In this document: piece after piece, positions 2,532 through 56,821 of the stretch | Layout of the letters: every line of letters starts with the position of its first letter | How positions within the stretch are numbered: the stretch's first letter is position 1 | Assembly: GCA_044892505.1 (NCBI GenBank) | Contig: CM097882.1 | Coordinates: 522,164,001-522,228,000 of the forward strand | Direction: 5' to 3' | DNA: 64,000 bases | Source of the DNA: Schmidtea nova | Lineage: Eukaryota | Position numbers and translations under genes: made by a program | The notes under the pieces: generated by a model | Told to the model about the DNA's origin: nothing | Database searches by the model: none | The model's input: only the letters and a program-made list of their open reading frames with translations

Positions 2532-3361
2532 TGTTGGGGTCATGCTTAGATAAGCATAAAATAAAAAGCACAAAAACTATGTGCAAATCAATAAAAAACA
2601 CAAAATCAAAAAAAGGATAATAATTGTTCAAAAATTAATTAACAATTTGAAAAAAATAAAAATAAAGATTTAACGGGGGAAATTGGTATATACGGATGGC
2701 GAATGTGGAGATGAGTACGAATGTGATAATAAAATATCAAAGTAGGATCCCAGAAAAAGATATTCAGTAAAAAGAAATTAATTAAAAATTTATGAATAAT
2801 TTATTAGTTATGTAGAAAACCCGAATCAAGGGGAAGCCCGAGTACATGGGAGATCCAGGCTAGTGGAGAGCCCGAGCAAAGGGGAAATCGAATTAACAAA
2901 AGCGCGGATCAAATAAATCAAATTAGAACAAATTCTAATAAGCAAAATTCCAATTACGGAAAGTCATAATCGAATTTGACCGCAAATTTGGAAAATATAA
3001 CCAATTTGTTGACAAATTAGTAAACTATAAAAGCGGCAAGAAAAACAGAAAATTGCCAGTTTGGTCGAAGAAAATTACCAGTGTCTAAAAGAGTGGGTAA
3101 GTGAAAAGTAGATTGTTGTAAAGACTCATTAGCCAATCAAGCGTATCAGAAAAGGCAATCTACCTTTGGTAGACCTAACCCTATCGCTTAGAAAAGAGTG
3201 CAGAAAGAGAGCGTAGAAACAATAAAGACTGTACTGATTTTAGTTGTTGTGAATTGTCAGATTTGAATAAATAAAATTTATTGTGTTGGGTCTCAGTTAT
3301 ATTGTGATTGAAGGAGCACGAGGAGTCAGAAACTAGACCTACTCAAATTAATAACTCAACA
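2532..3361 (+). mobile_element. Solo LTR (~830 bp, TG...CA) with 4-bp TSD CTAG
   Basis: Starts TGTTGGGG and ends CTCAACA; CTAG on both flanks (2528-2531, 3362-3365); collinear with the copy at 44843-45688. Confidence 0.9.
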
Positions 3362-19700: not shown

Positions 19701-20434
19701 CCATTACAAGACCAACACCTTGTACCAAACTTCTTAAAACAACGTTCAGCTACGTGGCCAATCTTATCGCAATGAGTACAACGTCTTACTTTGTTATATA
19801 CAACGTTGACACATTCAATGTCTTGAAATCTCGTATTCATCATTGTCCGTGTTATCTGAACAATTTCCTCCATCGGCATAGTATCAATCTTTGGAGTAGC
19901 CTGCAACAATCTCGACAATTCTTTAGGTAGTCCTACGACAAACGCGTTCCTAACGGAGTTCTCATTTACTCTTGCAAGCTTTGCATGAAATCTTAGATCG
20001 GCCAAAAATACATCCACATATCCTCCAGTCCATCTACAATTTCTCATTTTTTCGTATGATAAAAACATACTTGGAGAAAAAGCTTTTTCCAATGCATCCT
20101 CGATTGCTTCAAAACTAGCCTTGTCCTTTTCTGATAAATGTTCGTAGACGGCATATGCATCGCCTTTCAAAAGAGTAGACATAAAAACTTCTATAGTTTT
20201 TATCTTCAACATCTTTACAATTGATTTGAGTTGAGCAACCAGCTTGCAACATTGCCGGTTCCATCGAATTTTTCCAGATATTTCAAAAACTTCCATCGAT
20301 GACCGCGATAGCTTGTAGTAAAAATTATTAACGAGTTTTTGAATATTTATTTTTATAACATCAACTGCCTATTAAAACAATTGATATTAAATTAAACAAT
20401 AATTAAATTAAGCACGTAAATTAAATTAAGCACA
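16759..20434 (-). mobile_element. Compact LTR retrotransposon D (3.68 kb), 121-bp LTRs, TSD AAGAC
   Basis: Near-identical LTRs at 16759-16879 and 20314-20434 (TGTGCTT...ACTACA); 5-bp TSD AAGAC on both sides; PPT-like GGGGAGA next to the 3' LTR; gag with two knuckles, RT (LDLKNAYLQ, YIDN), RNase H, integrase with HHCC finger; several frameshifts. Confidence 0.93.
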
Positions 20435-23398: not shown

Positions 23399-23458
23399 AA
23401 TTAAGATTCTAATTAAATAAAATTAACAATTATCTTTTTTCACCTTTGATCTTTTTTT

Positions 23459-23643
23459 ATTATTATTATCAATAATTCTCATAATGATGACTATAGATCA
23501 AAATTTTTTTTATAAACAATAACACAATATTTATCAAGTGTGTATTTCATACAGATTTGATAAAGGCTGTGCCGAAATATTGTTATTGTTTATAAAATAA
23601 TTTTTGATCTATAGTCATCATTATGAGAATTATTGATAATAAT
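23459..23643. repeat. ~185-bp palindromic repeat (hammerhead-bearing family)
   Basis: Arms ATTATCAATAATTCTCATAATGATGACTATAGATC and their reverse complement; left hammerhead partly deleted, right core intact. Confidence 0.85.
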
Positions 23644-24312
23644 TATAAGTACTAATTATAAAAGTTTTTAGTCAAAAATATTACATTTTTTAAACTCTAC
23701 TTATCGTTTATAATTAAAATGACTTGATATGTTCAGCAATATAATTGAAATGGTGTAATATTTTATGCAAAAGTTTAATCCAAAATAATAATTTTAATTT
23801 CATTTTATACTTAAATTTTGTAATGTAACCATGCCAAATAACCCTTCCTTCCTTAAATTTAGCAAACAAATGTTGGCAAATGTTTATTAGCAAATGTCAT
23901 TAGTAAGTCTTTTCTCAGTGTAGCATTTATCTCATTAAAATTTCTGGAAGACCCCTAACTACGACCAGTTCTAGTATATTTTTTGTCTCAATCTTCTCGG
24001 TCGAAATTCATTTCAAATCGATATACATTAAAGCAAACGAAAAATTAAAACAAACAACAAATTTTCATAATTAATTAAAATAAGAAAATTATTATAAATT
24101 CACAATAACTATTGAATTTCTTTTTTAATATATTAAATACCAACATATACTACATAGGCACACGAAATTCCAAGCACTTATCCTACCAGAAGGTTTATAT
24201 AAGCAGAGCTATTAGTATTAGAATTTGTATTCTTAGATTTTATTCTTAGTGTTTGTATTTTACTTTTTTTCATTTTTAGTATTTCATAGTTTTTCTTATG
24301 TGTATTTCATAC

Positions 24313-24344
24313 AGACTTGATAAAGGCTGTGCCGAAATATTGTT
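24313..24344 (+). ncRNA. Putative minimal hammerhead ribozyme (3-bp stem I)
   Basis: GAC-UUGAUAA-A-GGC(UGU)GCC-GAAA-UAUU-GUU. Confidence 0.5.
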
Positions 24345-26465
24345 ATTGTTTATAAAAAAATTTTTTGATCTATAGTCATCATTATGAGAATTATTGATAA
24401 TAATAATAAAATTAAGATTCTAAATAAAATTAATTAATTAAAGTTTGGTTTATTTATTTTACAGTTTATTTATTTTACACCACATTTCATTATGAATTTA
24501 TCTTCAAGCGACAGATTATTATTATCAAAGGAAGTCGAAGAAAAATTAAACTTATAAATTTCACTTTTGACTTTTAATTTGTTGATGCAAACTGATTTAT
24601 TCCAAAAAAATATCACCATTACAATCAAGTTTTCTGACATACTCAAAGCGCCCAATGAAGCATCAAAGCACCTCATATGCAAATTATATACTCACATTGT
24701 TGAACTATTACTTGTTAGGCTGGTCAAAGTCAGAAAAACGGTTTTTCATAGAAAATCATGGTCATTTTCCAAGATAAATATCCGCTACATCCCTGCTAAG
24801 AAATATAATAAACAGATTGCAGTGCATGTAGCAATTACATTTTTTGACCAAGAGGTCAAGCCAACTTTCAATAAGAGGCAGTCAATCACTCAGACAGTTC
24901 AGCTATTTTTGATTTCAATTCTGAAATATTATTAATAATAAATGAAAAAATATATAATATGTTGCTGCAATTTTGTTTTAATTAAAATGCTAGAAATAAT
25001 AATTGTAAGCTTTCCGTTTTTTAACAGGGTAAAATTAACTGCGAAGATTTTCAACGCCTAGTTTGCCATATGTCAAATGTATTTATAAATTTGATGGGGG
25101 TGGTGAATCAGTGGCACAGAATGTATTCTGGTAATGGAGAAATCAGTTGCAAATTTCAAAGACATGGAGTTTGATCTTGAAAGGGATAGTTTTTTTATTA
25201 GGAACTGATAAGATTCAAATAAGCCCAAAATTTTCTGCTTTAAAAAATTTCATTGATTATCATATCGCACTTAATAAAATTGCTAGATGATCCGTGATCA
25301 AATTATATTCTGCCGTTGATCTTCCTATAATGGTTCAGTTCGAAGATATTAGACAAAAAATTAGTCGACTTCTTTTCCATGAGCATCAACGATAGATTGT
25401 GTAACAATGACGATAACATATCATCACGTTCACTACTAAGTTTTCTGACAAGACTGAAAATCTAACTTTTTCTAGAATGAACCAAATTCATCTTGCATTT
25501 TATAATGGACCACTTTCATGTCTCCAGTGTTTGCATTTAACGTTAATGTCTCTCTTATCTTTTTTGTATATTTCTTAATTTCAGCTTTACTTTACATACT
25601 TGAATGATTTCCGCTTCTCTTCGATGACTTCCTTCTTTAATCTTGACCCATGGTCGTAAACGGTGATCTTTTACATAAAACTTTGATGTTTTTAGACTTT
25701 ATACTTGCTTTTTAACAGCACCTATCTAAATTTTGTTTTGATTATTTCTTTAAAACTTGTACTTTGATCAGGATATATTTATTGAATAGATATTAATAAA
25801 TAAATATTCCAATATTCCAAAAGATTAACTCCTTTTTACTTCAAAGATGACTTCTAAATTTTTTAAATTTACTTATAACTTTATGAAAAACTAACAGTTC
25901 GGTTGAGAGGGTGTTTAAAGTCGCCTCTTATAAGGGCGCTCGTTGAGTCGTGTTGCTTTTTCCATATAATACATCAGGGAGATCTTTAATTCTTTATTCT
26001 CTGGGCACAGTCTCATCTAGTTAAGGCCCTAGTAAATATAAGTCAATTTGAGGAAATAATTTATTTTATAAATAATTTTTGTAAATTTTAATCAATTTTA
26101 CAATTTTGTTAATTCTTATGAGGATTTTTTATTGAAACTGTTGACGAGGCTTGGATTAAAGAACTGTATTTTATAAAAAAATATTAAGAATTAAAATCCA
26201 TAAATATAAAAGTATGAGAATAAAATTACAAATTACAAACACTTGACAAAAAGACAGTGCCCAAAATTCGTGTTAAATAATTAAAAATATTTAATTTGTA
26301 ATCTGAAAAAAATAAAGAAAATTGATAATGATACTAATAGACAAATAGTAAAAATGATAAAGGATTTCACTGACATTTCACTAACATTTTAATAATAAAT
26401 TCAAAAGTATTTCGGCAAACATTTAACCGAAAGTGTAGAAATAATATAAAATGATGAAAATTTAC

Positions 26466-28062: not shown

Positions 28063-28843
28063 TGTTGGGTATTTGCGATGTTTAGTCGGTGCTGTTAGTC
28101 TGACTCCTGGTGTTCTTTAAATTTGATTCAATAAAATAACCCAACACAGAAGAATTTATTTGTAACAATCACACTTTTTGACACACTAAGTCTCTTTAAA
28201 ATTTCACAATAACTTTTATCACTGCTTCTCCGACTTCGCGTAGGGATAAGTCTCCCCAAGGAAGATCTCCCTTTCTGGTACGCTGGAATAATAAATTTGG
28301 TTTGGAACTTTTCAAATATCGCTCTTAACTCCTCGCTTGCTAAATTCAAACTTTAGTATTTGTCGTTCCCTTTTATACTGCTTCTGATGATTGGTTTCCC
28401 ACTTCGCTGGAGCTGTCAAATGGTAGTACGATTTGACGTTTTAATTTTCCATCTGTCGGTTACTCTTCGGGTCTCCTCCAAAGTTATTTTTCTCAGGAAT
28501 TATTACCTGTCATATTGCTTGTCCGGGTTTCCCACACTCTCCGGGTTCTCCATTGTCTCGGGTTTCCCATTTGCTCGGGCTTTCCCTTAGCCAATTAATT
28601 ATTAATTAATAATTTAATATTTCAATTATTTCTTTCTGGGGACCCCCCATTGACTTTGTTTTATTATTTTTGGATTCGTTTCAATATTCGGCATCCACCC
28701 ATACCAATTTCCCCCGCTAATTCTCGGTTTTCGAATTTTACCTAAATTTTAATTAATTTTGAAAATTTTATACTTTATTGATTTTTACTAAGTTTTTATG
28801 ATTTTTATTTTTGTATTTTTCTAATTTTTACTAAACCTCAACA
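28063..28843 (-). mobile_element. LTR (781 bp, TG...CA) preceded by a polypurine tract, i.e. a 3' LTR of a minus-strand element
   Basis: Minus strand reads AGGGGAGAGG-TA-TGTTGAGG...ATACCCAACA; layout related to the 2.5 kb and 44.8 kb solo LTRs; flanks do not form a TSD. Confidence 0.75.
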
Positions 28844-28927
28844 TACCTCTCCCCTTTAATTTAGATTCGACCTCGAATCTATGTGTTTATATACATGTAT
28901 AAGTATTATTTGCCCATTTTTTTGCAA

Positions 28928-29114
28928 TGCTAATAATAACTCTAATAATAATAATAATAATAATAATATTAATAATAATAATAAAAATAATAATAATATT
29001 AATACTAATAATAATACCCTTAACAATATTAACAATAATACCAATAACAATACTAACAATACTATCACTAATAATACCAATAACATTACTAACATTAATA
29101 ATCCTAATAATAAT

Positions 29115-29194
<80 letters not shown>

Positions 29195-29245
29195 CACTAA
29201 CAATAATGATATTAGAGTATTACCGACGATAATGATAATGATAAC
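28928..29245. repeat. (AAT)n low-complexity tract
   Basis: Imperfect AAT/AAC repeat; source of poly-N, poly-I and poly-L ORFs. Confidence 0.95.
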
Positions 29246-31264
29246 TATCATCTTATATTTTATATATATAAGTATTTTCTATGTATTTATTCTGGAATGG
29301 AATCTTACAACTGTAACATTGTAAAATGTAACTATAAGTAAATAAAATTTAACCAAAAATGTTTTTAATAAACCTCAACCAATTGCAAAATTTTCATTAA
29401 TGCCAAAATACATCAAATGAAATATTTCATTACAAATTTCTAAAAATCTTATAAATTTATCTATATAATTATTACTGGGAATATCCGATATATATTACGG
29501 GACACGGTGAGTTGCCAATTATTTCATGTTGTTAATAATTTCTACATTCAGTCTATAATTAATAGAAGATTTATTTATTTCAGACATCAATTATTTCCTC
29601 ACTTAAATACTTTTTTACATATTATATATTTATGCATCTTATTGAATACGAACAATTTCGAGCAGGAAAAATTAAGAGAACAAAGAAATTGGTAGAATTT
29701 GATATATCAATGCGGCAGAAAACCATAAGAATAGGCAAAATTCGTCTGTGTCTAAAAATAATACAAGAAATCCTGTTATTTCGCATTTCTGTTTGTTAAA
29801 AAAATTCACTTAATTAAAACGACATAATAACGATAATAATAATTGATAAACCAATTTTTTTTTAAATTAACTATAATTAATGAATTTTTTTTTTTAAATG
29901 GAATCATTGTTACATTACGATAATGAATCGATTCTATGAGAATAGATTGAATCCTGTCAAAATACTATGAATGATGATTTATGATTAATAATGATTACTG
30001 TGATTAACTCTGATTAATAATTTACTGATGGAACTATTTTATCTCTAGGGATTAATTTCCTCCTCGGTGAAAAACACTCCCTCTCCGCCAGAATATTTCG
30101 AATCAGAAACTAGCAGAGACCATTTATCAAAACTGACAAATTTTTTTTAACGAGACTGACAAGGATATTTATGATAGTTACATTTCTGACTACTAAAACA
30201 AAACCTTTTCGGGATTAAGAACTGCTTTTTCTGTGAGGGTATGCCTATTGGAAAAGTGACGTTTGTTTCTCTCTCATTCGTCAGCCAGTTTGCCTATATT
30301 ACCAGGTTGACTATCATAATGTTCATCATATCATTTCATTATCTTGGTTTTCGAGCAAATCCACCTGTTATTTTTTTGGATCTATTCTTAAGTAAGATTT
30401 TAATAATTTCTTTCTTATTATTGCATTTCTTATTTTTTTTTTGATTTATAACTTTGAATTTTTTTTTTAAATTTATAAATTTGAATTTCTTAGTAATATG
30501 TTTATGTGATCATCTAATTCATTATTTTTCAGTGGCTACTGTGCTCCAATGTTTCAATGACAATGTTTCAAAATTCCTACAATTGTGTACACATTCGCTA
30601 AATACTGTCGCTACGCATCTGACTCGTAAAAGCATAAAACGAATTATTCTTAATTATTAAAAATAATAATAAATCGGTATGAAATATACGTTGTCAACAA
30701 TTCTTTTTGTTTTATTATTATTAAAAATAAATTTTTAATAGTTGAAATTACAGTCTACTTCTTTTTAATAGAAGGCATTTTTTTTTAAAAATGTATAGCT
30801 TATACATCGAGTTTACTCGGCGTATGTTTGATATATAAATCAAAGTTTAGGTAATCCTGAAATAAATTATGATTTTGAAACAAACGGTATTTAAGATGAC
30901 AAGTGGGTAAAGTAGTGATCTGCTTTCAAGATCACAGTGTTGATAAAAAGTTGAATGACAACTACATTTTTTTGCTTTGTATGTCAGTGTTTCAATTTAG
31001 CAATTGAGCATCAATATTCTCCTGTACTGTTTTCAATCATCTCATTTATAATTTGTTTCTTTTGGGAAATGAGAAGTAAAGAGGTATGATATATTGTATT
31101 CCCAATGATAAACACAGTGTGACAGGAACTGCAGAACGTAAATGTTTTACTTTATTTATTCAATTATATGTTTAATGTAAGTTCGATTTAATATTTATTT
31201 TACTTAACACTATGTGAAATTTGAAATTTAATAATAATTCGAATGATTGTGTGACGTCGTCAAC

Positions 31265-31311
<47 letters not shown>

Positions 31312-31356
31312 TAACAATAATATCATAATTATCTTTTTTCACCTTTGATCTTTTTT

Positions 31357-31540
31357 TATTATTATTATCAATAATTCTCATAATGACTATAGATCAAAAT
31401 TTTTTTTTATAAACAATAACACAATATTTCGGCACAGCCTTTATACACTTGATAAAGGCTGTGCCGAAATATTGTGTTATTGTTTATAAAAAAAAATTTT
31501 GATCTATAGTCATTATGAGAATTATTGATAATAATAATAA
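31357..31540. repeat. ~184-bp palindromic repeat embedded in (AAT)n
   Basis: Near-perfect inverted arms centred near 31445; same family as 13.4, 23.5, 24.3 and 50.3 kb. Confidence 0.9.
31445..31477 (+). ncRNA. Putative minimal type I hammerhead ribozyme (intact copy)
   Basis: ACAC-UUGAUAA-A-GGC(UGU)GCC-GAAA-UA-UU-GUGU. Confidence 0.65.
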
Positions 31541-31546
31541 CAATAA

Positions 31547-31577
<31 letters not shown>

Positions 31578-31978
31578 AATAAAAATAAAACTAACAACAA
31601 CAATATTAATTATTATTATTATTATTGCTTAGAACACTATAAAAGTATAGTGACATTATAAAATGATGATGCTACTGATATTAATTTCACTAATTATGAT
31701 GATAATGACACTGATTGCATTTACCTCTAACAACAGACCCTTCCCACTCGTCGTCCAGGGTAGCCAAACCCCGGCGATTGGGATTGTTTTGTTTGTTAGT
31801 TATTTATTTTATTTTTATCTCTATTTATAACAATTACTTATTTGCTTTATAAGTTGACTGAAAGTTAAAGCTACAGGGTCTAATTGGTGGGTTGCCATAA
31901 ATAAACGAATCCACAATATTTTACGATTATTTATTTTATAAATAAATCATATACAATTTAATAAATTTCAGTTAATCA

Positions 31979-33442
31979 TCAATCCATTTTTATCTCCATT
32001 CGATTTGATCCATGCTTGTACCGAACAATTGTTTCTTCTCGTTCATAGATAACACCGCTGTATAATATGGTTTTGCTAACTTCAATTGTCGAATCTGCTT
32101 TCCTTTTCAACTCGTTTACTTCTCTAGGCATTGGGCCATATTCTAACGTGGGTTGGAGTTTCACAATGTTCCAGTTTGGTATTGTTTCCAGACTCTCTTC
32201 AACTGGATTTATCAATGTTTCCACTGGATAACTTAGATCAATAATAGGAACTTCGCTCTCTTCCATTACTATGTCTTCACTTGTTAGATCTATTGCTTCC
32301 ATAGCCATGTTCTCCGGGATTTGTGCTAACTTTTGCCTATCGGTTCCTTGAGTTAATTTGGATGTGTTGGCATATAAATTTTTGTATTCCTTTAGAGAAT
32401 ACTTTCTTGATGGTTGTTTTCTGGGAATCACTATATCATCAATCCATTGATTCTCTACCCGTTGGTATATCTTCCGTATCGTTTTGACATCCTCCAGCGC
32501 AGAGTGTATCCCAACCTGCGTTTCTTCTCTGCATATTTCCCGTGCTACCGTCTGCAGCTTGAACCACTCTCCTCTTCTGGTTACGTTCATTCTTTGTAGT
32601 ATTTGTGCAGCTGCAAGATCCCGTATCCCATACAGTTGATCTACCCATAATCCCACATACTGTAGTTCGGCGTGTAAATCGTGGCCTATTAATATTTTTC
32701 CCACTGTTAGCCTCTGAATATCATTCATTTCCGAATATTGATCATGCTGATTTCTGCTGGCTACCTCTGTAATTCCATGGATCTTGGAATTGAAATGGCC
32801 AATTTTTCCTCTTGGGGTCAAATACACGTCTTTAATTATTTTTCCATGGTAATTTATCATCGCAACTGATAAAGGGATCATTCTTTTCGTTTCCGATGTG
32901 GCATATTCCGCGTCCACGAACATTATTCTGTTCCGAATTTCTTCCATATCCATTTCTTTCCTAATGAATGAGAGTTTCCTTTTTAACATTTCTGCTGATA
33001 TTTTCATCAACGTTGAATCCTGTTCCTCTGATGGCTGTGCGCTTGGCCTCTCATTTGGCTCGTTTTCTATTCTTGTTTCTATAACAATGATTGTTTCCTC
33101 ATTCGCTGCGCGTATAGGTTTCGCCATGATTTCCTTTTGGATCTTCCAGGACAAAAATTTCTTCAATTCCATCCACGGCTGATTCCCGTCCATTATTTCT
33201 ACTGTTCCTTTGATAACATGTAGGTAATATTGTTCTTTATTGGATATTCGAACTTTGTCCGTTAGCTTCATTCCCATCTTTCGGTGTATTCTGAGTATTT
33301 TAATTTTCATTTTTCGGTCGTCGATTCTGAAATAATTTGGGATTTGTAAGTTGTCTGTAATCTGGAATTTTTGCCCTGCATGGCGTCTTTGCAGCTTTGC
33401 ATAGCTGTCTAATGTGGATCTTGCCCATTGAATTTGTTCCAT
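31979..33442 (-). CDS. 487-aa protein with a DEDDh 3'-5' exonuclease domain (REX4/ISG20-like)
   Basis: ExoI FVDAEY, HGIT, ExoII LIGHDLHAEL, ExoIII HSALED; open and intronless. Confidence 0.85.
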   Translation of the reverse strand: MEQIQWARSTLDSYAKLQRRHAGQKFQITDNLQIPNYFRIDDRKMKIKILRIHRKMGMKLTDKVRISNKEQYYLHVIKGTVEIMDGNQPWMELKKFLSWKIQKEIMAKPIRAANEETIIVIETRIENEPNERPSAQPSEEQDSTLMKISAEMLKRKLSFIRKEMDMEEIRNRIMFVDAEYATSETKRMIPLSVAMINYHGKIIKDVYLTPRGKIGHFNSKIHGITEVASRNQHDQYSEMNDIQRLTVGKILIGHDLHAELQYVGLWVDQLYGIRDLAAAQILQRMNVTRRGEWFKLQTVAREICREETQVGIHSALEDVKTIRKIYQRVENQWIDDIVIPRKQPSRKYSLKEYKNLYANTSKLTQGTDRQKLAQIPENMAMEAIDLTSEDIVMEESEVPIIDLSYPVETLINPVEESLETIPNWNIVKLQPTLEYGPMPREVNELKRKADSTIEVSKTILYSGVIYEREETIVRYKHGSNRMEIKMD

Positions 33443-33849
33443 TCTTACTGAAATATTTATAATTAAAGGTTTATCAATATAAAATTTGAAGCTAGGGTTA
33501 AGATGAAGTGCCCAAAGGGTACTGTCTTACCTGTAGCTGTATATATATAAATATTAATAAAAAAATTACCAATTTAAAATTTTGAAATCGGATTTATTTA
33601 AAAAATTTTAAGTTTAAAGGATAAGCGCTTCTTTATATGCTCTTACAAATTTTCTATGACCTATTTCCTACTTTCCTACTCCCCCTTGTCTTTTAGTGTT
33701 AGCCAATCAAATTTATTCTTCCTTTCTTTCGTCGGAGAAGCAGTTTTACATAAACATTGATGATACTATCACTGAAAACACTGAATAAAATGTAAAAAAT
33801 AATACTACTACTACGTTATCAAAATTGCATGCAAATTAATCATGTCTTA

Positions 33850-36800
33850 CTACACAATTGTTTCTTCATAGATCATCCAAGGTCTCGAAGGCTCGGATTG
33901 AATCGTAGGTCTGTATATTTTTATCGATTCGCAAAAGACAATAGCGCCAAATGTGATGAGAAAGATTGTTAGGATAATGATGGTTATAAATAATATCACA
34001 CACGCGATTTCTTTGTCATTGTTTAATAATGGTATAGTTTTATTATTTACAATTGATTTATTGGTGATGTCATTGAAAGGCGTTGTCATCTGATTTTGGT
34101 ACAGTGTATTTGAATCGCTGTCATTTATCTTGTCGTAAAAGATTTGGACGAACTTGTCCTCGACTAAAGTTACTCGCCATAGATTAGAATACGAGGTGCG
34201 ACGCTGATATTTGATTTTCATAAAGACAAATTTTGACCTTGACTTTGATCGTAGTTGTTGAAATGTTAATATTTGAGATTTATTGCTGCTGTCTAAGATT
34301 GCCTGAACTTTTCCACAATAGTATATAATAGCTTTTTGATTTGGGTCTGCTCTCCAAGTAACATTTATTAGTTGATGGTATATATAAAACTGAACTCGGT
34401 TCGTTTCGTTGATCAATTTTATCGTTTGTTGACTAGACTGAATTTCAATCCATAGATTATCACTGACGGTTCCATTATCATATAAGGATTTTTCATAATA
34501 ACGAATCAAGATATTATATGTCTGAAATAATTTCAAATTATCATAGTTTATAAAGGGTTTTCTGCTGTTCAGCGTGTCTATAGCATAATTCTGGAAGACA
34601 GTTTTCACTTGTTGGGTTTCTTGTGGTTCCCAATGTACATTAATTCCATTCACAACGGGTTCAATCGAAACAAGATGCTCTAACCTTTTCGTCCAAACAT
34701 CGAGATGTACCATATTATATATTTTTGTAGTGTTCCCTTTAGAGCTTAATTGTGTTATTAGCCACTGATATTTATAATTCATCGTTAATTGCCGTGCCAC
34801 GTGAATGTTTTTATTATAATTCAATCTAACTGGGGGTTCAAAATAATCTAGTAAATTATTTACTTCAATTTCCTCTTCCCTTTCACCGTGAAAAAACCAT
34901 ACGATCTGGGTACATGTTGCATATATGTGAATTTTATCCATCAATGGGATTCTTTTTGTTGCATACGAGGGAAAAACTCGTATTTCACTTGTACAGAAGA
35001 CATTTGCCATCATTATTGTTGAAATCAACAAGACTTTGTTGATATAGTTTAGTGGAGCTGGGTTTTTTGTAAATTTTTGTTTTACTGCTCCTTCTACGTC
35101 TTTAATTAGTTTTGATCTCAATGGATATCGTCTTATTTCCTCCGACGGAACTTTCTTGGACCGGTTTACATGAACAATTATTGTTCCAGCTTTTTTATTA
35201 TTCTGTGGGCGTAATTTCAAATTAATTTCTGTAGTATCACATACGATATATGGTCCTTTAAACGGTCGCTGCAATTTTGGGGATAATCCCTTTGTTGGCT
35301 CTGGTTTATTCACATATACTAAGTCACCAATTTTAATATCATGTGCATGAGTGCGCTTGTCGTAGCACTCCTTATATGCTTCTTGCTGATGTTTTATTTT
35401 AAGTCCGGCTTGAATCCAAACTGTCTGGAGTCTTTCTTGCATAATCACTTTATAATCTGATACATCCATATATTGGGAAATAGGCGACTGAAATTTCAGA
35501 TCGATAGGCATATTGTTTCTTCGTAGGTACATGAGATAGAAAGGTGTTTCACCGGTACTTTCGTTCACTGCATTTCTGTATGCATACAAACATGGTTTAA
35601 TGAATAAATCCCAATCTTTTTGTTTTCTATTTACGTATGACGATATCATATTAATTAGTGTTTCATTGAATCTTTCCACTAATCCATATGTCTGTGGGTG
35701 ATATGGTGATGTACTGATTTTCATTATTCCAAATAATTCTGTAATTGATTTGAACAATTCGCTTTGAAAATTTGTTCCTTGGTCAGTAAGCACTTTCTTT
35801 GGTGCCCCATATCGAAATATTATGTTTTCCACAAATATCTTTGCAACTGTCTCAGCTTTCTGGTTTTGCATGGGGTAGGCTTCTGGCCATTTGGTTAAAT
35901 AATCACAGAAGACAATAATGTATTTATTGCCGTTTGTCGTTTCTGGTAATGGACCGACAATATCCATTGCCGTCATTTCCATTGGTGCCACCGGTACAGA
36001 CATTGGTTTTAAAGGAACTCTAATTTTTCGTCCTGTGTTTCGTCTAGTTAAGCATATTTCGCAAATGTGACACCATTGTCTGACATCTTGTTCTATAGTG
36101 TCCCAATAGTATTTTTGTTTTAATCTTGACAATGTTTTTCGAGCTGATAAATGCCCTCCTAATGCTCCGTCATGATACAACAATAATAATGATTTTCTAT
36201 GTTTTGTTGGAACTATAATTAATAAATTTTCATTTTTTACGCATTTTAGCAAACCATCATGTATAATGTATTTATGTCTTTCCTCGACAATATGCTTCCA
36301 GTCGCTTTCTTTTCTAATTGTGACAGCATGTTGACGTAGCTGATTCAATTCATCATCCTTTTCTTGATCACTTTGCAATTCCTTCATATTATTTGCAGTT
36401 TTAATTGCCATAAATATAGTGTTTTCATACTTTGTTTCATATTGAACAACGTCCTCCTCCTCTGAAATTCTCGACAGCGCGTCTGCATTTGCGTTCGACT
36501 TTCCTGTACGATATTTGATCTCAAAATCATATTTCTGCAAAGCAATTGACCATCTTATCAGCTTACTTGCCGAGTCTCTGTGCTTCATTAGCCATTGTAA
36601 TGGGTTATGATCAGTGAAAACAACAAATTTCATACCGAGTAAGTATTGCCTGAATGTAGTTATTCCATATACTAATGCTAACGTTTCTTTTTCAATCGTA
36701 GAATAATTCTTTTCATGCGGTCTTAACGTTCGACTGGCATAAGCGATAACGTGATCTTTCTCACCTTCTACTTGTTGACCTAGTATCGCCCCTACTGCAA

Positions 36801-37587
36801 ACTTACTAGCATCTGTCATCAATAAGAATGGCCTTTTAAAATCAGGGCATCTTAATATAGGTTGTTTCATTAGGCTTTCTTTGAGTGCATCGAATGCTTC
36901 TTGTTGAACCGATGCCCATTTAAATTTTGCTTGCTTTTTCAACAGCACATTTAAAGGTTGTGCGACATGCGAAAAATTTCTTATAAATTTTCTGTAATAA
37001 CTAGCTAGTCCTAGAAATTGTCGGACTTGGTCTATATCTTTGGGAATCGGATATTTCTTAATCTTTTGTACATTTTCCGGATTCGGCTGCAATCCTCGCC
37101 GGGAAATAATATGACCTATGTAAACAACTTCAGATTTTCCCCATTCACATTTTGACGGTTTTATCTTTAGGTTTGCCTTTAACAATCGTTTAAATACTGT
37201 TCCCACATCCCTCAGATGTTCCTGAAAATTGTTTGAAAATATTATTATATCATCAATATACACTAGTGCATGTGGGATGTCCCGTAATACGAAATTCATA
37301 CCTCTTTGAAAGGTAGCCGGTGCTCCCGTTAAACCAAACGGTAAGACATTAAACTCGTACAGACCTTTACCGTCTGAATACGCAGTTTTTCTCCTGTCCT
37401 CTTCTTTGACCTTAAACTGATTATACCCTTTGTTAAGATCAATAACAGTAAAGAATTGCACCTCCCCCATTTGATCGAACATTTCTTGGGGAACTGGAAT
37501 AGGGTATGTATCTTTTCTTGTGACTTGATTTAACTTTCGATAATCTACACAGAATCGTAGATCACCATCTTTCTTTTTCACTACCAC
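33850..37587 (-). CDS. Pol (RT-RNase H-integrase) fused in frame to a signal peptide, an Ig/FN3-like ectodomain and a TM helix
   Basis: RT YIDDII; RH LMTDAS...EKE..FTDH; IN HHCC (YHDGALGGH...CEIC), MDIVGP, LTDQG, LVERFN; GPY motif; then hydrophobic KVLLISTIMMANVFC, ~320-aa N-glycosylation-rich region and TM IACVILFITIIILTIFLITFGAIVFC. Confidence 0.9.
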   Translation of the reverse strand: MVVKKKDGDLRFCVDYRKLNQVTRKDTYPIPVPQEMFDQMGEVQFFTVIDLNKGYNQFKVKEEDRRKTAYSDGKGLYEFNVLPFGLTGAPATFQRGMNFVLRDIPHALVYIDDIIIFSNNFQEHLRDVGTVFKRLLKANLKIKPSKCEWGKSEVVYIGHIISRRGLQPNPENVQKIKKYPIPKDIDQVRQFLGLASYYRKFIRNFSHVAQPLNVLLKKQAKFKWASVQQEAFDALKESLMKQPILRCPDFKRPFLLMTDASKFAVGAILGQQVEGEKDHVIAYASRTLRPHEKNYSTIEKETLALVYGITTFRQYLLGMKFVVFTDHNPLQWLMKHRDSASKLIRWSIALQKYDFEIKYRTGKSNANADALSRISEEEDVVQYETKYENTIFMAIKTANNMKELQSDQEKDDELNQLRQHAVTIRKESDWKHIVEERHKYIIHDGLLKCVKNENLLIIVPTKHRKSLLLLYHDGALGGHLSARKTLSRLKQKYYWDTIEQDVRQWCHICEICLTRRNTGRKIRVPLKPMSVPVAPMEMTAMDIVGPLPETTNGNKYIIVFCDYLTKWPEAYPMQNQKAETVAKIFVENIIFRYGAPKKVLTDQGTNFQSELFKSITELFGIMKISTSPYHPQTYGLVERFNETLINMISSYVNRKQKDWDLFIKPCLYAYRNAVNESTGETPFYLMYLRRNNMPIDLKFQSPISQYMDVSDYKVIMQERLQTVWIQAGLKIKHQQEAYKECYDKRTHAHDIKIGDLVYVNKPEPTKGLSPKLQRPFKGPYIVCDTTEINLKLRPQNNKKAGTIIVHVNRSKKVPSEEIRRYPLRSKLIKDVEGAVKQKFTKNPAPLNYINKVLLISTIMMANVFCTSEIRVFPSYATKRIPLMDKIHIYATCTQIVWFFHGEREEEIEVNNLLDYFEPPVRLNYNKNIHVARQLTMNYKYQWLITQLSSKGNTTKIYNMVHLDVWTKRLEHLVSIEPVVNGINVHWEPQETQQVKTVFQNYAIDTLNSRKPFINYDNLKLFQTYNILIRYYEKSLYDNGTVSDNLWIEIQSSQQTIKLINETNRVQFYIYHQLINVTWRADPNQKAIIYYCGKVQAILDSSNKSQILTFQQLRSKSRSKFVFMKIKYQRRTSYSNLWRVTLVEDKFVQIFYDKINDSDSNTLYQNQMTTPFNDITNKSIVNNKTIPLLNNDKEIACVILFITIIILTIFLITFGAIVFCESIKIYRPTIQSEPSRPWMIYEETIV

Positions 37588-37617
37588 GATTGAAGCTGAA
37601 AATGGTGATGAGCTATC

Positions 37618-38482
37618 TCATATTATTTTGAATTCTTTCATTGCTTTGATTTGCCTATCACTTTCTTCTTGATGAATGTATGGAATCCTATATGGCCTCA
37701 ATTTTATAGGGGTTTCGTCCAGCAATGGTATCTCATGTTCAATCACTTGAGTGAGTCCCAAATCATATTCATGTTTCGCGAACACATTCCTGTATCTCTT
37801 TAGTAGTGCTGTAAATTCTTGTTTTTGCTCATCTGTCAAATCATTACTTGTAATTTGAGGTCCTTTGTAAATCTTTATATTTCTGGGCAACCTTTGTACT
37901 TCTTCTTGTTTTATTTTTGTCAGTTTCCCGAGCTTTGTTTTGGGTTTCATCTGAACAGATTTTGTGCTACAATTTGCTAATCTTACTGGTACGGTTTTGT
38001 CTTTAACTTTTACTACTTCATCGCACATTGCTCCGTCGTACTTCTCTATTAATTTTTGATTTGGTTCAAATATACATTCATCTTCGGAGACATTCATTAC
38101 ATTGGCATAGTATATAACTTCGCTTTTTGGTGGTATTTCCAAAGTTTGATTTAAAAAAACTTGTCCCGCTTCGTGTACAACTTCACCAGTTAGTCCTTTT
38201 ATCAATTTTCCCGTTCTTAAATCAAGAGAAATTCCTTGTAATTGTTCCATAACGTCCATTCCAATCAAGCATTTGACAGGGCTTTTTCTCATTACAGATA
38301 CCCAATGAGTTACTTCTTGATTTCCAATATTCAGCTTAACTTCCAATTTTCCAACGATATTCAATACATTATGCGTCATTGATAATAATTTTCGTAGTTG
38401 GCTTTATTCTTGCCTTCTCCTGACTCGTCAAGAGATTCTCAGATACTATGCTGTGACTTGAGCCTGAATCCAATAACGCTTA
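37618..38482 (-). pseudogene. Aspartic protease and RT N-terminus of the large element
   Basis: ALLDSGSS at 38462-38470 directly after an in-frame TAA (38480-38482); 1-nt frameshift near 38400; in-frame TGA at 37618-37620 before SSSPFSASIVVVKKKDG. Confidence 0.9.
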
Positions 38483-38950
38483 AACTTTTCGTCTATTAAA
38501 TTGTATGACAATTCGAGGTTGTTTTCCTCCCAATTCTATGGTCAATAATGCATAACTACATGGTAAACCAAGCATATTCTTTCTTTCAATTTCGGCGCTT
38601 GATGGTTCAATCTTTTCTAATTCGACTTTAATCTCATCAACTGGTTTCATTTCTCTCAACTTCTCACTTGGATATACAGGAGCTGTTGGCATAAATGTCG
38701 GTGTGTACCACTTAGAGAGAGTGTCAATTCCAGTTAGTTTTGGTATTGGTTCCAGCAAGAATCTGGATTCGGGGTCTATTCTACTTTTTATTATACCCCG
38801 TCGAAACGATTTTGGCTCTGATCTGCCGCCATTGCTATCATTGTTGTGACCATTATTTTTATCCTCAAATTCGCATAGTGATTCTTCACTTTTCGGATCA
38901 TTTTTCAATTGTGCTCTAACACTTGCCATTTCCTTATATTGATGATTTGT

Positions 38951-40804
38951 AATGAAGAATCTAGCCAAAAACGGAATACAACCAATAATCATTTTCCATG
39001 ACCATCCGTAAATTGCATATATTCGATGAGCGGACAATATTTGTGATATTATTACTTTTATTGTTACTGCAACTACATAAATGCCAATTAAGCCTGCACA
39101 AGCTTGTCCTAAAAACATAAATCTTCCCCAAATTTTTTTCATTGTTTTAAATGTAGCTCGTTTAAAATGATCAGGTGTCAGCAAATATTCGTAATTAGCT
39201 TTTCCTTCTCTATTTGGCAGTATTGGATCAATCATCTCAGAAATCACTCGTTCCTTTTTTGATGGGAATAATAAATTTCTTTGGGCTTCTTCTATATCTT
39301 CGCTTGCGTATAGACCCATTTGTGCCATCTTATTCATTGATGTGAAATTTACCAAGTACTCTAAATTTATTAATTCCAATTTATCTGGAGTTCTAACTCC
39401 CCGGTATTCTGGTAACGCTATCTATGAATCTTGTGCTAAACGATATAGTGGAGCTAATAGTCGATTACATTGTAGAATTTTCGGTTTGACTTGTTCTTCC
39501 AACAATATTCGAGTTATCGGTTCCATGAATCGTAATTTCCCGCCAACACTTACCAATAATTCATTTGTACATTTCTCATATTTCGCGATTTTCACTATAG
39601 TTTCTTTGCATCTGTAACTGTATAATGCTTCTCCAAAGATCCTAGCGAATACACCATTTTATGATATTAGCATGGGTGCTACTAAATTTGGATTAGTAAT
39701 TGCCATTGCCATTCGATTTCTAAGTATTTCCTTGTTCAACTTACAGTCGTTTAGAATCATTTCTCTATATACGTTTTCCATGATGTTTTGACTAAAATGA
39801 AACAAATAGTCAATTTTATTATTGAAGTAATGAGTTAATTTGATATCATCCCGGTGAATTCTTGTTTTAGCCTCATATACGATTGTTTTAGATACATAAA
39901 CTCCTTTGTAATTTGTTGCATATACAGTTTGACCACATTTACTCGTTATGTCTTTTTTTATGAACCGCATGCTGTCTGTTGGCAATGTTGACATTAACAC
40001 TGTTGCCGTTTGTCTCGTCCAAACTTGGGTTGATCTAACTGTATTGTTCGGTTTATAATTCACATTAAAATTGTCCGGTCTTTCCCTAAATTGCTCTCCG
40101 CTCAATTCTTTGAAATTAATAGTTTTTAAATGGGATAAGTTGCATATATTAGTCTTGACATCATAGACAAGAATCGATTCTCCAGTGTGACAACTAGTTT
40201 GTTTCATATTACAGAATGGATGAGTTTGTAACTTTCCTGTATCGTCATCAAACGACCCTTCGAATACTCTCAATTCTGTTAGATATTCCTCTATTACTAC
40301 TGCTTGTTTTATCACTTGATCATTTATTTTATACGGTTCTCCCTCACAATCGCCGTCTGATTTCATTACTCCTTTCACAATTAATGTTTCTCTGATTTGA
40401 TGGTTTACTCGAGCTTTCAATCGAATTTCAGGACTAATTTTTAATTCCCCTGTTTGAAATGCCGTTAAACAGTTTTCTGGTAACACGTCCACCGGTCGTG
40501 GAATAGCATGCATTTTTATCATCGAAGTATGGCTCCATTTGCCACAAAAGAATACGAACGTGGTTCGTTTAACGATACATTCCCTAACTTGAGAACGCCG
40601 TAAATCGGATTCTTGGTAAACATGATATTTTGCTTCATTTTCAATTTTTAATTTTCTTGGGTATGCATCTGGGCATTCTGTCATATCGACCACAGAATAA
40701 ATTTTCCCCATTTCTGTTTGTGAGCAATCGTATGCCACCAATGAAGTAGCTTGTGCAATTATTGTGCATAAAATAACCATCATGAACATCACCCAAGGGA
40801 ATAT
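38951..40804 (-). pseudogene. Chuvirus-type envelope/fusion glycoprotein with signal peptide and C-terminal TM region; two in-frame stops
   Basis: Signal IFPWVMFMMVILCTIIAQATS then LVAYDC; Cys-rich ectodomain; GEALYSYRC...C.NEL.V...F.EP.TRIL...C; TM region WGRFMFLGQACAGLIGIY...YGWSW; stops at 39659-39661 and 39422-39424. Confidence 0.75.
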
Positions 40805-40891
40805 CGTAGTTTTTCTTAGTTTTGGGTCTATTTTTTCGTTCAACTTTCTTTGAGGTGGATTCTCATCTTCTTGTTTCTTTCTTTTCTTTGT

Positions 40892-41265
40892 TAAAGATGA
40901 ATTTAATGCATTCCAACCTCCAAGCTCTTTTATCCCTTTCATCAAACATTCATTTAATAGTCGAGCCGCAGTGTCAATCAAATTCTCAATCTGATCTGGC
41001 CTAGTAAATGCACGAATACCAATTTCGGAAACCATATGTGTTAAACTTGTTAACACTGTTTTTCTATCGATTCCATTTTCGATCAATTTTTCAATCCTTT
41101 CTCTTTTACAGAAATCACCCTTTTTCCAAATTCATGCTCAATTTTTGGAAGTCTCTCTTTCACTTCCTCAACCATCCCTTTCAATTCCTCCTCAGCTTCT
41201 GGTTCTATTTTTAGAATTGGGTAAACAGTTTTAACTAGGTTTCTTATTATTTCTTTAGTTTCATC
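40892..41265 (-). pseudogene. Bcl-2-like helical domain (split by a frameshift near 41095)
   Basis: BH4-like EIIRNLVKTVYPIL; BH3-like ELKGMVEEVKERL; BH1-like KLIENGIDRKTVLTSLTH; BH2-like LNECLMKGIKELGGWNAL. Confidence 0.6.
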
Positions 41266-41589
41266 AACTTCCCGCTCTATATTTACCAAATATTTCTTCA
41301 TCTCATATAAAGTTCTAGGTTTAGTACTCCAATTATTCATTTCCACTTTCTCGACATTTGTCTCTCTGCTAATTGTAGTTTCTGCTACCTGAATATTGAT
41401 TTCCTTCTGATCATCACCTTCATCGTTAGCTATTGCGGTTTCATTTTCTCCTATTTCATCTCTCTTTTCTTCTGTGTCGGAGGATTCCCCATTACCAAGC
41501 ATTCTCGGGTTAAATTCTTTATTTGCTATTATACGATTAATTAAATATCCCTGACTTCCATCAGTACTTAAATATCCATATTCATCTAA

Positions 41590-42276
41590 TTCTTGTGGTA
41601 TGCATCCACAGTCATATAAATATTCATCGTCATCCAGTGCTTCACCTTTATGTTTCAACACTATAATTCCATCTTGTCCTAACATCTTCGTAGCTCTTCT
41701 ACGTATTTTCCGCACTTTCGTACACCAATGCTCTTCTACATACTCAGTTTTTCCAATATCTTCGTATTCTATTGCAATTACTAATAAATTCATTTCTGCT
41801 CTATCTTCTCTAAGCTCCTTGCCCAATTTTCTCAGTAATCTCTTTAAATTTCTACTATATTTGGTTCTTTTAAACAGATGCGGTCGTATTACGTTGATAA
41901 TTTCTATTTTATCTTTTTGCTCAAATTCAGATTTCTCAATTAATTTCACTATTTCATTTATTTCGCTTTCATCGCCAATATATAAAACATCAGATAGCTC
42001 CTTTAACACTTCCCTCGGATCACTTTTCACCATTTCACAACTACTCCTCATATTGACTATTTGTAACTCATTTTTATCTCCTGTTATAAAACCACAGTCT
42101 ACCAAATATTCCTCGTTATCTAATTCTCTATTTTTAAATTTTAATTCTACTACCCATCCTTCGCATTTTTCTCTTAGTCTCCTTTTTAAATCTTTCACAC
42201 AATCATAGGCTTCACATCGACAAGTAATCACACTTTTATCACAGTCATTAACAACATCAATAAAAATAAAATCTAA
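41590..42276 (-). CDS. Two ubiquitin-like modules within the polyprotein (part of ORF 41083-42939)
   Basis: CVKDLKRRL...VELKFKNRELDNEEYLVDCGF and TKVRKIRRR...VLKHKGEALDDDEYLYDCGC; pattern resembles ubiquitin 'vK.ki...rLif.Gk.LeD..tL.dy.I'. Confidence 0.6.
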
Positions 42277-42779
42277 CCATCCATTTTCTCGGAATGCTTT
42301 TCCAAATGTTTTCATCAACTCTTTGATTTCATCTCTATCTGCTAAATTTATTTGATAATAGTTTGCACACAAATTAATCACGCATTTTAGTTTCCTCATA
42401 CTCAGCGACATTTGACTCAACTTTTTAATTGACATTAATATTTTGGATGATTCTCTTGCGCTAGCTTCTAGCAATTTCTCAAGTCTCTTCATCATTATTG
42501 TAACTTTTTCGCTTTCCAAATCGTCCTTTGTACAAACTCCTTTCGCTTCCGTTTCAGTCATATCCGACCCATACATCATATGATTATCTAATTCCTCATC
42601 AGATTCAAACTTAGACATTAAAAGATCCAAGCGTCGACCCATTTCTTTCACTTGATTTTCAATTCTATCATTAAATTCGTCTGATTGAACAAAAGCAACA
42701 TTTTCTGCTGGCATTCTATCATTTTGAAAACGAATTGATTTTTTTAATATTGGTTTCTGAAATTTATCGACATTTCTCG

Positions 42780-43972
42780 GGCATGATCTAGCTATATGTC
42801 CATAGCCTCGACATGAATGACATTGGATTTGGCCTTGAAGGTTCACTCTATGGCGAAGTGGATGGAGATCTCGATCTGGCAAAACAATTACGTGAAACAT
42901 GTCCTTTCCTTCCACAGTTGTAGCATTGTATATTATCATTAGTTCGTTGATCTTTAATACTAAATTTATTTAAGCTTTTTTCACTATTACCCTTCATCCA
43001 ATCTGGCCACATTCGTTTTGGGCTTCGTTGTACATTATTTTTAGACCAGCATTGATTGCTATTGTGACCAATCTTTTGACAGTGATCACATTGAATTGGA
43101 GTTGGGCTTTTTTGCGATCGGTTCTTGAACCAACATTGATCGGCATGATGTCCCATCCGTTGACAATAACTGCATTGAATTGGTTGTTCTTTTTCGTCAA
43201 TTTGAACACGTGTTGATTTATTCATCTCAAATTTTGGTCTAAATTTTGGTGATGGACAACTTGATTGCTGGAGCAGATTGTTTCTGACTGGAGAATTGGA
43301 TCTTTCTCTTGATTCATTGATAATGGCGAAGGATTCTGATTTCGGCTTTGCACTTTTTAAATTTAATTCAATTTTCATAGCCTTTTTGATTAACTCATCG
43401 AAGTTATTGAAATCTACATAACATAAGGCTTTTTTGATTTCCCCTTTTACTCCCGCTAAGAACTGATCTTGTAATAGTTCCTTTATCTGCTTTGCCACTT
43501 CAATCTGTTCCGGTTTTACTTCGAAGGCCTTTTCTGCAAGCGTGGTCAAATGGTATGCAAATTCACTTACGGATTCGTCTGATTTTTGTACTCTATTATA
43601 GAATTTCTGCCTCATTATCCGTTTTATGTCTCCTCCGACTAACTTCGCGGCTAAGGCATCTTTCAGTTTTGTCCAGTCATTGGCAATTGTCCTTTTGTCA
43701 ATTTGTTGCCAGGCTTCTCTTGCTGCTCCCTTTAAATACAGTGGTAGTCTTTGCACCATTATTGATTGGCTCCATCCATAGGCTGTGGCATACATATAGT
43801 AATCTGCCATAAAGTCGACAAATTCCACTGGATCACCCCCATATTGGTTAACTGGTAATTTTTGGCAGCTAGCATAATCATTGCCATTTCCGGTATTGCT
43901 TGTGGACATGGGTGTATCATCATGACCGTTTGGGTTGTTCATTTCGTCTTCTGGTTTCCTGTTGCTTCTCAA
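42780..43972 (-). CDS. Gag of the large element with four CCHC zinc knuckles (fourth after a frameshift near 42860)
   Basis: Retrotransposon gag-type capsid region (YGGDP.EF...F..RVQK.DESV.EF...L..LA); CSYCQRMGHHADQC, CDHCQKIGHNSNQC, CYNCGRKGHVSRNC, CHSCRGYGHIARSC. Confidence 0.9.
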
Positions 43973-44689: not shown

Positions 44690-45902
44690 ATGTCTTTTAA
44701 AAGATTTGATATACTGGCACCGGGAATTATACCATTTCGAATATGGATGTCAAGCGGAATAGATCTCAATGCTGTTTTAATGGATTATTTAAAGACGATT
44801 GATCAGGAACTATTGGTAGTAATATATCATGAACCTTGTGTATGTTGGGGTCATGCTTAGATAAGTATAAGATAAAATAAAAAGCACAAAACCTATGTAC
44901 AAATCAATAAAAAAACACAAAATCAAAAAAAGGATAATTAATGTTCATAGATTAATTAAAAATTTGAAAAAAATAAAAATAAAGATTTGACGAGGGAAAT
45001 TGGTATGTACGGTGGGAAATGTAGAGGAGAGTACGGATATGATAATAAAATATCAATGGGGGTGCCAGAAAAAGATATTCAGAATATAGAAATTAATTAA
45101 AGATTTATGAATAATTTATTAGCCATATAGAAAACCCGAGTCAAGAGGAAGCCCGAGTGCATGGGAGATCCGGCCTAGTGGAGAGCCCGAGCAACGGGAA
45201 ACCCCAGAAGAAATCGAATTAACAAAAACGCGGATCAAATAAATCATATCAGAGCAAATTATAATTAGCATAATTCCAATTACGGAAAGTCATAATCAAA
45301 TTTGACCGCAAGTTTGGAAAACATAACCAATTTGTTGTCAAATTGGTCAACTATAAAAGCGGCAAGAAAACAGAAAATTACCAGTTTGGCCGAAGAGAAT
45401 TTCCATTAGTTTTTAAGATTGGGTAAGTGGAAAAGGGGATTATCGTACAGTAACCTTTGCCAATCAAGCGTATCAGAAAGGGCAATCTACTCTTGCTAGA
45501 CCTAGCCGTATCGCTTAGAAAATAGTGCAGAAAGAGAGTGTATAAACAATAAAGATTGTACTGATTTTAGCTGTTGTGAATTGTCAAATTTGAATAAATA
45601 AAATTTATTGTGTTGGGTCTCAGTTATATCGTTATTAAAGGAGCACGAGGAGTCAGAAACTAGACCTACTCAAATTAATAACCCAACATGTATATCGATG
45701 TGAAAGTTGCGTTGATCAGTTGAAGAACGATCATGTATGGATTCTAAAAAATGAGTTGAGAAAATATCATTTTTCAACCATTGTAGATAAATTTTCAAAC
45801 ATTGTAGATAAATTTTCAAACATTGTATATAAATGTTCAAACATTGTTGATAACTGTTCAAGCATTGTTGATAACTGTGCAACCATTGATGAAAACTGTT
45901 GA
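44690..45902 (+). pseudogene. ~120-aa ORF split by the solo LTR
   Basis: ATG at 44690; 51 codons to the TSD; after removing the LTR and one TGTA the frame continues (CVYRCESCVDQLKNDHVW...) to TGA at 45900-45902. Confidence 0.5.
44843..45688 (+). mobile_element. Solo LTR (846 bp, TG...CA) with 4-bp TSD TGTA
   Basis: TGTTGGGG...ACCCAACA flanked by TGTA on both sides; same family as 2532-3361. Confidence 0.9.
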
Positions 45903-56760: not shown

Positions 56761-56821
56761 ATTTAATTTTAATCGATGGTCTATAATATTGAATATTTAT
56801 TTTTTTTTTAAAAATCACTCT

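Follow-up and report, generated by a model that had tools for sequence, protein, structure and literature searches.

The open reading frame described here, ORF2, is the fixed second gene of a young gag-env-pol element of the Ty3/gypsy group, about 17 kb long, and its product is predicted to join a cupin-like N-terminal domain to an exonuclease domain of the ISG20/REX4 type. ORF2 is linked to pol and present in many copies, has been under purifying selection during the spread of the element and retains intact D-E-E-H-D residues; it is almost certainly a selected accessory gene of the element. The copy from which we started lies in a stretch of 64,000 nucleotides of Schmidtea nova (contig CM097882.1, positions 522,164,001 to 522,228,000 of the forward strand; hereafter, the window), and its features are collected in Table 1.

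Table 1. Features of the ORF2-bearing element in the window (positions are those of the window)
Feature	Positions	Strand	Description or basis
3′ LTR	28063..28843	minus	TG...CA
Polypurine tract	28844..28857	minus	
3′ untranslated region	28859..31978	minus	AT-rich, about 3.1 kb
ORF2	31979..33442	minus	487 aa: cupin-like domain, linker, DEEDh exonuclease, low-conservation tail
C-terminal part of ORF2	31982..32437	minus	aa 336–487, variable; KRK cluster at 446; no family assignment
Exonuclease domain of ORF2	32438..32932	minus	aa 171–335, ISG20/REX4-like: D177, E179, E259, H313, D318
N-terminal domain of ORF2	33068..33442	minus	aa 1–125, predicted cupin/double-stranded beta-helix; conserved P35, N36, H75, E122 (model, Foldseek cupin matches, conservation)
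Predicted 5′ UTR intron	33448..33569	minus	122 nt, G/GTAATT ... TTTCAG/ (from sequence alone)
Predicted TATA box	33631..33639	minus	of the internal promoter
Inverted CCAAT box	33703..33711	minus	TTTGATTGG, identical in 6/6 families
GCATG motif	33825..33835	minus	conserved, directly after the pol stop; 6/6 families
Polyprotein	33850..43942	minus	broken in the window copy (4 stops, 3 frameshifts)

The frame from 31979 to 33526 on the minus strand is unbroken and its first ATG, at 33442, yields the intact 487-residue product given in the initial annotation; this ATG lies 407 bases from the pol stop codon (33850), in agreement with the distance of about 400 bp given there. An extension in frame upstream of the ATG was rejected, its 28 codons being open solely in the family of the window copy. 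The exonuclease motifs reported before are all in place, ExoI as VDAEY (D177/E179), ExoII as GHDLHAE (E259) and ExoIII as HSALED (H313/D318), and the placement among DEDDh enzymes of the REX4/ISG20-like branch is upheld, for a member of that branch carried as element cargo. The Pfam family PF00929 (RNase_T) matches ORF2 weakly (E = 4e-4, below the curated cut-off), ORF2 matches ISG20 at 3.5e-7 and ISG20L2 at 4.5e-7, and the family profile matches ISG20L2 at 7e-31. Judged by sequence comparison, the homology of ORF2 to exonucleases exceeds chance.

The window copy is without a 5′ LTR and primer-binding site, and its likeness to other copies ends at 44063. Sister copies have paired LTRs of 810–990 bp, a primer-binding site, a polypurine tract and 4-bp target duplications, and within these a single polyprotein of about 3400 codons is followed by ORF2 and then by an AT-rich 3′ region of 2–3 kb; six full-length copies with two LTRs measure 15.6–17.3 kb. 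The two LTRs are at least 99.5% identical in seven of the eight two-LTR loci of one set and in six of the seven of a second set, and thus the lineage has spread very recently. The polyprotein comprises gag, a region without assignment, a gB-type (Monjiviricetes-like) env, PR, RT, RNase H, IN, an ectodomain and a transmembrane helix, in this order; a Pfam search of the upstream frames found gag and a zinc knuckle, and PF24664, PF03732, PF00078, PF17917 and PF00665 in that order, with the gB-type env between gag and PR-RT-RH-IN. The seven lesions first counted in the polyprotein of the window copy were recovered by comparison with a natural unbroken copy, as four in-frame stops and three frameshifting deletions. 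The backbone is that of a known GAG-ENV-POL errantivirus type: the flatworm elements Smed_errantivirus_1 to 6 are described as carrying a gB-type env between gag and pol (PMC13524379), and 43 of the first 50 residues of the window env match the env of Smed_errantivirus_1 when compared by eye.

Some features of the polyprotein may be recorded here. Between gag and env, a region of about 570 residues (41083–42969, minus strand) has no Pfam match and is 34–72% identical between families. Past integrase, the polyprotein runs on for about 400 residues (33853–35061, minus strand) into the ectodomain and transmembrane helix, and would thus add a second membrane protein beside env; for this tail the Atlas search gave fibronectin type III receptors as a lead (0.88–0.90), and the end of pol in the metagenome contig L116, described below, is similar. 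The primer-binding site is the same in every family in which it was seen among sister copies, and resembles a tRNA-Trp primer site. A fusion of the exonuclease to pol was rejected as the normal layout, as it occurs at one of nine loci and arises from an internal deletion; this single copy (L040–L041) has the nuclease joined in frame to pol.

The exonuclease domain has at least 150 matches in the genome, from 2178 candidates. All of the 30 nearest copies of ORF2 continue into the pol end. Reciprocally, of the 30 nearest pol ends, 28 are followed by ORF2 within 1.5 kb, and the other two carry an inversion at that place; the linkage to pol, for which a check was proposed at the outset, is thereby shown. 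Among more distant copies (a set of 20, from which locus L106 was left out), the polyprotein of the element was found upstream in 19 of 19, 17 with integrase and two with gag joined by deletion. A further 16 loci had element genes upstream in 15 cases; at the remaining one, which belongs to eight distant loci, there were none within 14 kb. The copies fall into six element families, between which the nuclease domain is 49–97% and the RT 86–100% identical; the two identities fall together, as expected for inheritance of ORF2 with pol.

The REX4-like gene of the host is found at a separate locus, has introns and a canonical DEDDh set and is 23% identical to ORF2. In an unrooted tree of 92 nuclease domains, ORF2 does not group with cellular REX4-like proteins: the 32 cellular rows lie beyond a 100/100 branch from 59 family rows and one unassigned row. 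On this phylogenetic evidence ORF2 has an ancestry separate from that of the host REX4-like gene, and the possibility, raised initially, of a single-copy host gene unlinked to other copies of the element falls away; ORF2 is borne by the element. Elsewhere in the genome, locus L050 holds a host DEDDh gene, the genome's best match to PF00929, with the domain within one open frame; from its motifs we take it to be an ERI1-like gene.

The dN/dS ratio over ORF2 is about 0.11–0.12 between families, a rough estimate because synonymous sites are near saturation at this distance, and constraint is weaker in the C-terminal tail (0.3–0.6). These values point to purifying selection on ORF2 between families; no positive selection on ORF2 was seen in these substitution comparisons, and the six families agree at each of the five catalytic positions across saturated synonymous divergence. 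In the family of the window copy, the ratio of non-synonymous to synonymous changes (N/S) in ORF2 is 0.23 for shared as against 0.68 for private changes (Fisher p = 0.02), and the pol end shows the same pattern (0.18 against 0.85), as does ORF2 of a second family (0.12 shared, 0.65 private). In a third family, private changes are also constrained (N/S 0.22; 0.16 in its pol), which probably reflects subfamily structure. ORF2 is intact in 15 of 28 close copies (the nearest 30 minus L005, a tandem twin, and L008, the reference) and has 0.61 lesions per kb, compared with 0.69 per kb in the polyprotein of the window copy. Since private changes are near neutral, shared changes constrained and the lesion rate like that of the polyprotein, selection has acted during the spread of the element and not after insertion. 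Meaning had also been attached in the initial annotation to the absence of stops from ORF2 downstream of a polyprotein with seven lesions. This does not survive: seven lesions in 10.2 kb lead one to expect about 1.0 in 1461 bp, with a probability of finding none of about 0.37, and this, together with the share of intact close copies, makes the lesion-free ORF2 of the window copy a matter of chance. Its intactness is uninformative as to selection after insertion.

The spacer between pol and ORF2 carries the elements of a predicted promoter. The CCAAT box sequence, TTTGATTGG, turned up in 17–29 of 5000 sequences made by shuffling the bases of one spacer, and a TATA-like site follows the box by 32–75 nt in all six families. 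In four of the six, G/GTAATT and TTTYAG bound a segment of 116–129 nt; both signals are absent from the other two, whose spacers are shorter by about the length of the intron. After removal of the intron, the distance from TATA to ATG is 54–104 nt, compared with 84–96 nt in the two intronless families. The TTTCAG noted earlier as a candidate splice acceptor just 5′ of the ATG stands in part: it ends 5 nt before the ATG and is kept as TTTYAG in four of six families, but its partner is a donor about 120 nt upstream, so that it would close an intron of the 5′ UTR, and two families have neither signal. As the CCAAT and TATA boxes are kept in all families, transcription from an internal promoter is more probable than a message spliced from the LTR, and we predict from the sequence that an internal Pol II promoter and an optional 5′ UTR intron precede ORF2. 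A donor-like CAG/GTAAGA in the spacer was rejected, being seen in the family of the window copy only.

All six families of this genome read D-E-E-H-D: ExoI D-x-E and ExoIII H-x4-D are kept, and the ExoII Asp is replaced by E259 throughout. Coronavirus nsp14 tolerates Glu at ExoII, and nidoviruses have either Glu or Asp there (PMC7654266); by analogy D-E-E-H-D can be regarded as a catalytically tolerated variant. The wider family was assembled as 64 rows, assigned by score and by the shared N-terminus, with genomic context known for this genome and for L116–L118 only; 24 rows are DEEHD, 16 DEDHD, 13 degenerate and 11 incomplete, and the 13 degenerate rows keep P35, N36, E122, P210, R211, D234, R274 and W333. 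PF00929 was found in 25 of 44 members and PF01612, weakly, in three. The Arg that binds ribose (R53 in ISG20, R185 in SDN1) is N218 in ORF2; it is present in one of 40 active-looking members of the family as against 26 of 33 cellular rows, and the family carries His at 222 and Arg at 211 instead. In SDN1, R185 is reported to bind the 3′ ribose and to be needed for full activity (PMC6123492, in part). With this Arg gone, the substrate may differ from that of ISG20, and the activity may be low or directed at DNA. The product of ORF2 is probably an active nuclease.

A profile search returned 754 clusters at E ≤ 0.001 and 27 at E ≤ 1e-30, the best of which share the N-terminal region; nearly all of the clusters looked up are without protein names. 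A word-based search for homologues gave no match among 4084 candidates, but an HMM search did recover the family. In a scan of IMG/VR, none of 72 pattern matches was related, and a scan of metagenomes gave four loci of 33, one of which (L119) is a cellular gene of the REX4 type.

A model of residues 1–345 built from 97 sequences reached a pLDDT of 96.4 and a pTM of 0.90, an earlier model from six sequences having been poor (pLDDT 34). The second domain of the model is DnaQ-like, with ISG20 as its nearest match (Z 18.5, rmsd 2.3 Å over 160 residues), followed by ISG20L2, Pan2 and SDN1; further fold matches include RNase T, DnaQ and TREX1. The first domain is modelled as a beta barrel, for which Foldseek returned the cupins 1y9q (E = 1.1e-4), 1v70 and 3d82, with modest E-values obtained for the domain within a longer model; a low-confidence model also matched the Mif2/CENP-C cupin, EutQ and folds that bind cyclic nucleotides (cNMP). 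Thus, the N-terminus of about 170 residues, formerly without assignment, is predicted to take a cupin fold. The metal site of cupins has the motif His-x-His...Glu...His; among residues of these kinds, the domain of ORF2 conserves a single His, kept in 40 of 46, and a single Glu/Asp, kept in 43 of 46. A search of the ESM Atlas with the N-terminus gave no usable match.

ORF2 is also found behind pol in a different gypsy element. On the metagenome contig L116, the RT is 58% identical and pol is extended by a second protease and by ankyrin repeats before a transmembrane end; behind it lie two tandem ORF2 paralogues (L116:7268–10371), one catalytically dead and one DEDDh, followed by a weakly SUMO-like ORF. 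That ORF2 holds its place after pol even in an element this distant makes the association old. ORF2 diverges faster than RT (34–72% as against 58–96% identity). A non-autonomous derivative of about 10.5 kb (L080–L083, L094–L095), with LTRs 96–99.8% identical and common breakpoints, lacks env and pol and retains ORF2, still open, beside a gag-like ORF; in two of its copies, ORF2 is separated from the autonomous version by five and two synonymous codons, respectively, with no non-synonymous difference. Open in three gag-only derivatives without RT and env, ORF2 may look better retained in derivatives than it is, since these were found by searching with the exonuclease domain.

The closest arrangement known to us by description is that of the Juno/Vesta LTR retrotransposons and Terminons of bdelloid rotifers, which carry a DEDDy-type ORF3 (Rodriguez et al., 2017; PMC5408684, in part); a change from DEDD to DEED is noted there, and a function for ORF3 is only proposed. 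As in Juno/Vesta, ORF2 is a separate DEDD-superfamily ORF that lies behind pol and within the LTRs, in a freshwater invertebrate. The rotifer ORF3, however, is an RNase D-like DEDDy protein of elements without env, whereas ORF2 is a DEDDh protein with His313 of the ISG20/REX4 branch, is fused to a cupin and belongs to an element with env and a predicted internal promoter. We infer, the rotifer side being known by description, that ORF2 was captured independently. Exonuclease ORFs are cited as known accessory domains (PMC6338049, in part). In the text and seven supplements of PMC13524379, as far as they were available, exonuclease or DEDD is not mentioned; that paper lists neither LTR nor tRNA for its six Smed elements and scanned 3 kb past pol, short of the roughly 5 kb at which the 3′ LTR is reached here. 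The giant Burro LTR elements of planarians (25–30 kb) share the position of env, in frame between gag and pol, and accessory ORFs; the available part of the review names no Burro exonuclease (PMC6431247), and its description of Burro is resembled by L116, with its ankyrin repeats, SUMO-like ORF and two ORF2 paralogues. Thus, exonuclease ORFs behind pol are known from rotifers and the cupin-DEDDh version appears new: no DEDDh or cupin-exonuclease ORF in LTR elements was found in the open literature searched, Repbase, closed papers and the first Burro report lying beyond it.

With cellular REX4, ISG20, ISG20L2, SDN1 and Pan2 (PDB 1wlj, 7yw5, 5z9x, 4czw), ORF2 shares the fold and the D-x-E, H-x4-D, GHD and RD motifs; unlike these cellular enzymes, it has Glu at ExoII, a cupin N-terminus and a separate branch, and is without the ribose-binding Arg and the Met after ExoI. 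Coronavirus nsp14 ExoN (PMC7654266) and arenavirus NP are likewise virus-borne DEDDh/DEEDh domains, but ORF2 is a separate ORF and not a domain of a replicase or nucleoprotein, and with one Cys in 487 residues it is without the zinc fingers of nidovirus ExoN. Neither nsp14 nor arenavirus NP is among the 50 fold matches listed, which is compatible with kinship.

The reading that we prefer, and hold tentatively, as possible and short of probable, is that this conserved second gene encodes, from its own promoter, a cupin and ISG20-like exonuclease protein that removes short RNA directed by the host against the element. The protein would act in the host cell and not inside the particle, where its 3′–5′ exonuclease would trim or remove short single-stranded RNA; the substrate may be silencing RNAs (piRNA or siRNA) or other RNA that triggers defence, and the cupin-like domain may be a binding or targeting module. 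The predicted promoter, the selection on ORF2, its fast divergence, its survival in derivatives without RT and the dead paralogues argue for a factor facing the host rather than for a part of replication. The nearest relatives of solved structure act by trimming RNA at the 3′ end; SDN1 is described as trimming Argonaute-bound small RNAs and taking off the methylated end (PMC6123492), and planarian LTR elements as strong targets of piRNAs (PMC8532177). A more specific form, in which ORF2 suppresses piRNA silencing, its remodelled ribose pocket trimming 2′-O-methylated, PIWI-bound piRNAs with the dead paralogues as partners or decoys, seems quite unlikely to hold in full. The nuclease might instead do housekeeping work, trimming nucleic acids of the element's own cycle, namely the genomic RNA at its 3′ end, the primer tRNA or by-products made of single-stranded cDNA, as was proposed for the rotifer DEDDy ORF3 (PMC5408684, in part). 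This we consider rather unlikely, although selection on ORF2 during spread resembles that on pol, and the active site, without the ribose-binding Arg, could have become accessible to DNA (the fold matches include RNase T, DnaQ and TREX1); a separate promoter would be odd for a step bound to the particle, and dead paralogues are kept. Moreover, most gypsy elements replicate without such a nuclease gene.

It is unlikely, too, that catalysis is weak or dispensable and that the protein works by holding RNA in its cupin-nuclease fold or by competing with REX4/ISG20-like or PIWI-pathway factors of the host: loss of the ribose Arg, the 13 of 64 relatives that are degenerate in the active site yet keep the eight residues listed above, and the dead and live paralogues in tandem in L116 all agree with such a role, but none of the six families here has a change at any of the five catalytic positions. 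The initial annotation had also considered that ORF2 might keep the copying of a long genome accurate, here by reverse transcriptase, in the way that nsp14 proofreads for coronaviruses, and the DEEDh signature, the same as in nsp14, and the DnaQ-like fold would suit such a role; the idea is nevertheless very unlikely for an element of this length, as the gene stands outside the polyprotein and is fused to pol only through the deletion described above, ORF2 persists in derivatives without RT, many relatives are without an active site and the nearest solved relatives are RNA-processing enzymes. That ORF2 does nothing for the element, as a passenger or as a host gene that was domesticated, could be suggested by an intact ORF2 beside a broken polyprotein, but is hardly credible given the number of genomic matches, the purifying selection on shared changes with neutral-like decay after insertion and the divergent, intron-containing host gene with its cellular relatives across the 100/100 branch; it is refuted for the family, domestication at a single locus elsewhere being possible. 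Viruses are well known to encode counter-measures against small-RNA silencing; in animal retrotransposons such counter-measures are, to our knowledge, scarce. ORF2, for which the host-facing reading remains our preference, is a widespread, old and selected candidate for one, with a confident model and with live and dead natural variants, in a host group in which PIWI knockdown is routine. Were it merely to process RNA of the element, it would still mean that LTR elements have acquired a DEDD nuclease twice, independently, and would add an architecture, cupin joined to nuclease, of which we found no published description.

Other repeats were noted in passing. The 3′ region of the element has a hairpin-forming insertion near 31333–31527; a near-perfect inverted repeat of 92 nt at 31353–31543 is part of a small repeat of very high copy number inserted there, which is also present at 13370, 23411–24434 and 50246. 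Two solo LTR-like copies (2556–3361 and 44872–45688), in the opposite orientation, are about 90% identical to each other and about 72% like a sister-family LTR. Other decayed gypsy elements and one MULE/FLYWCH transposase ORF occupy 5986–9924, 16871–20368, 55390–56796 and 58827–62456. At another locus (L031–L033), two units of 10.6 kb stand in tandem, each an internally deleted element with an intact ORF2.
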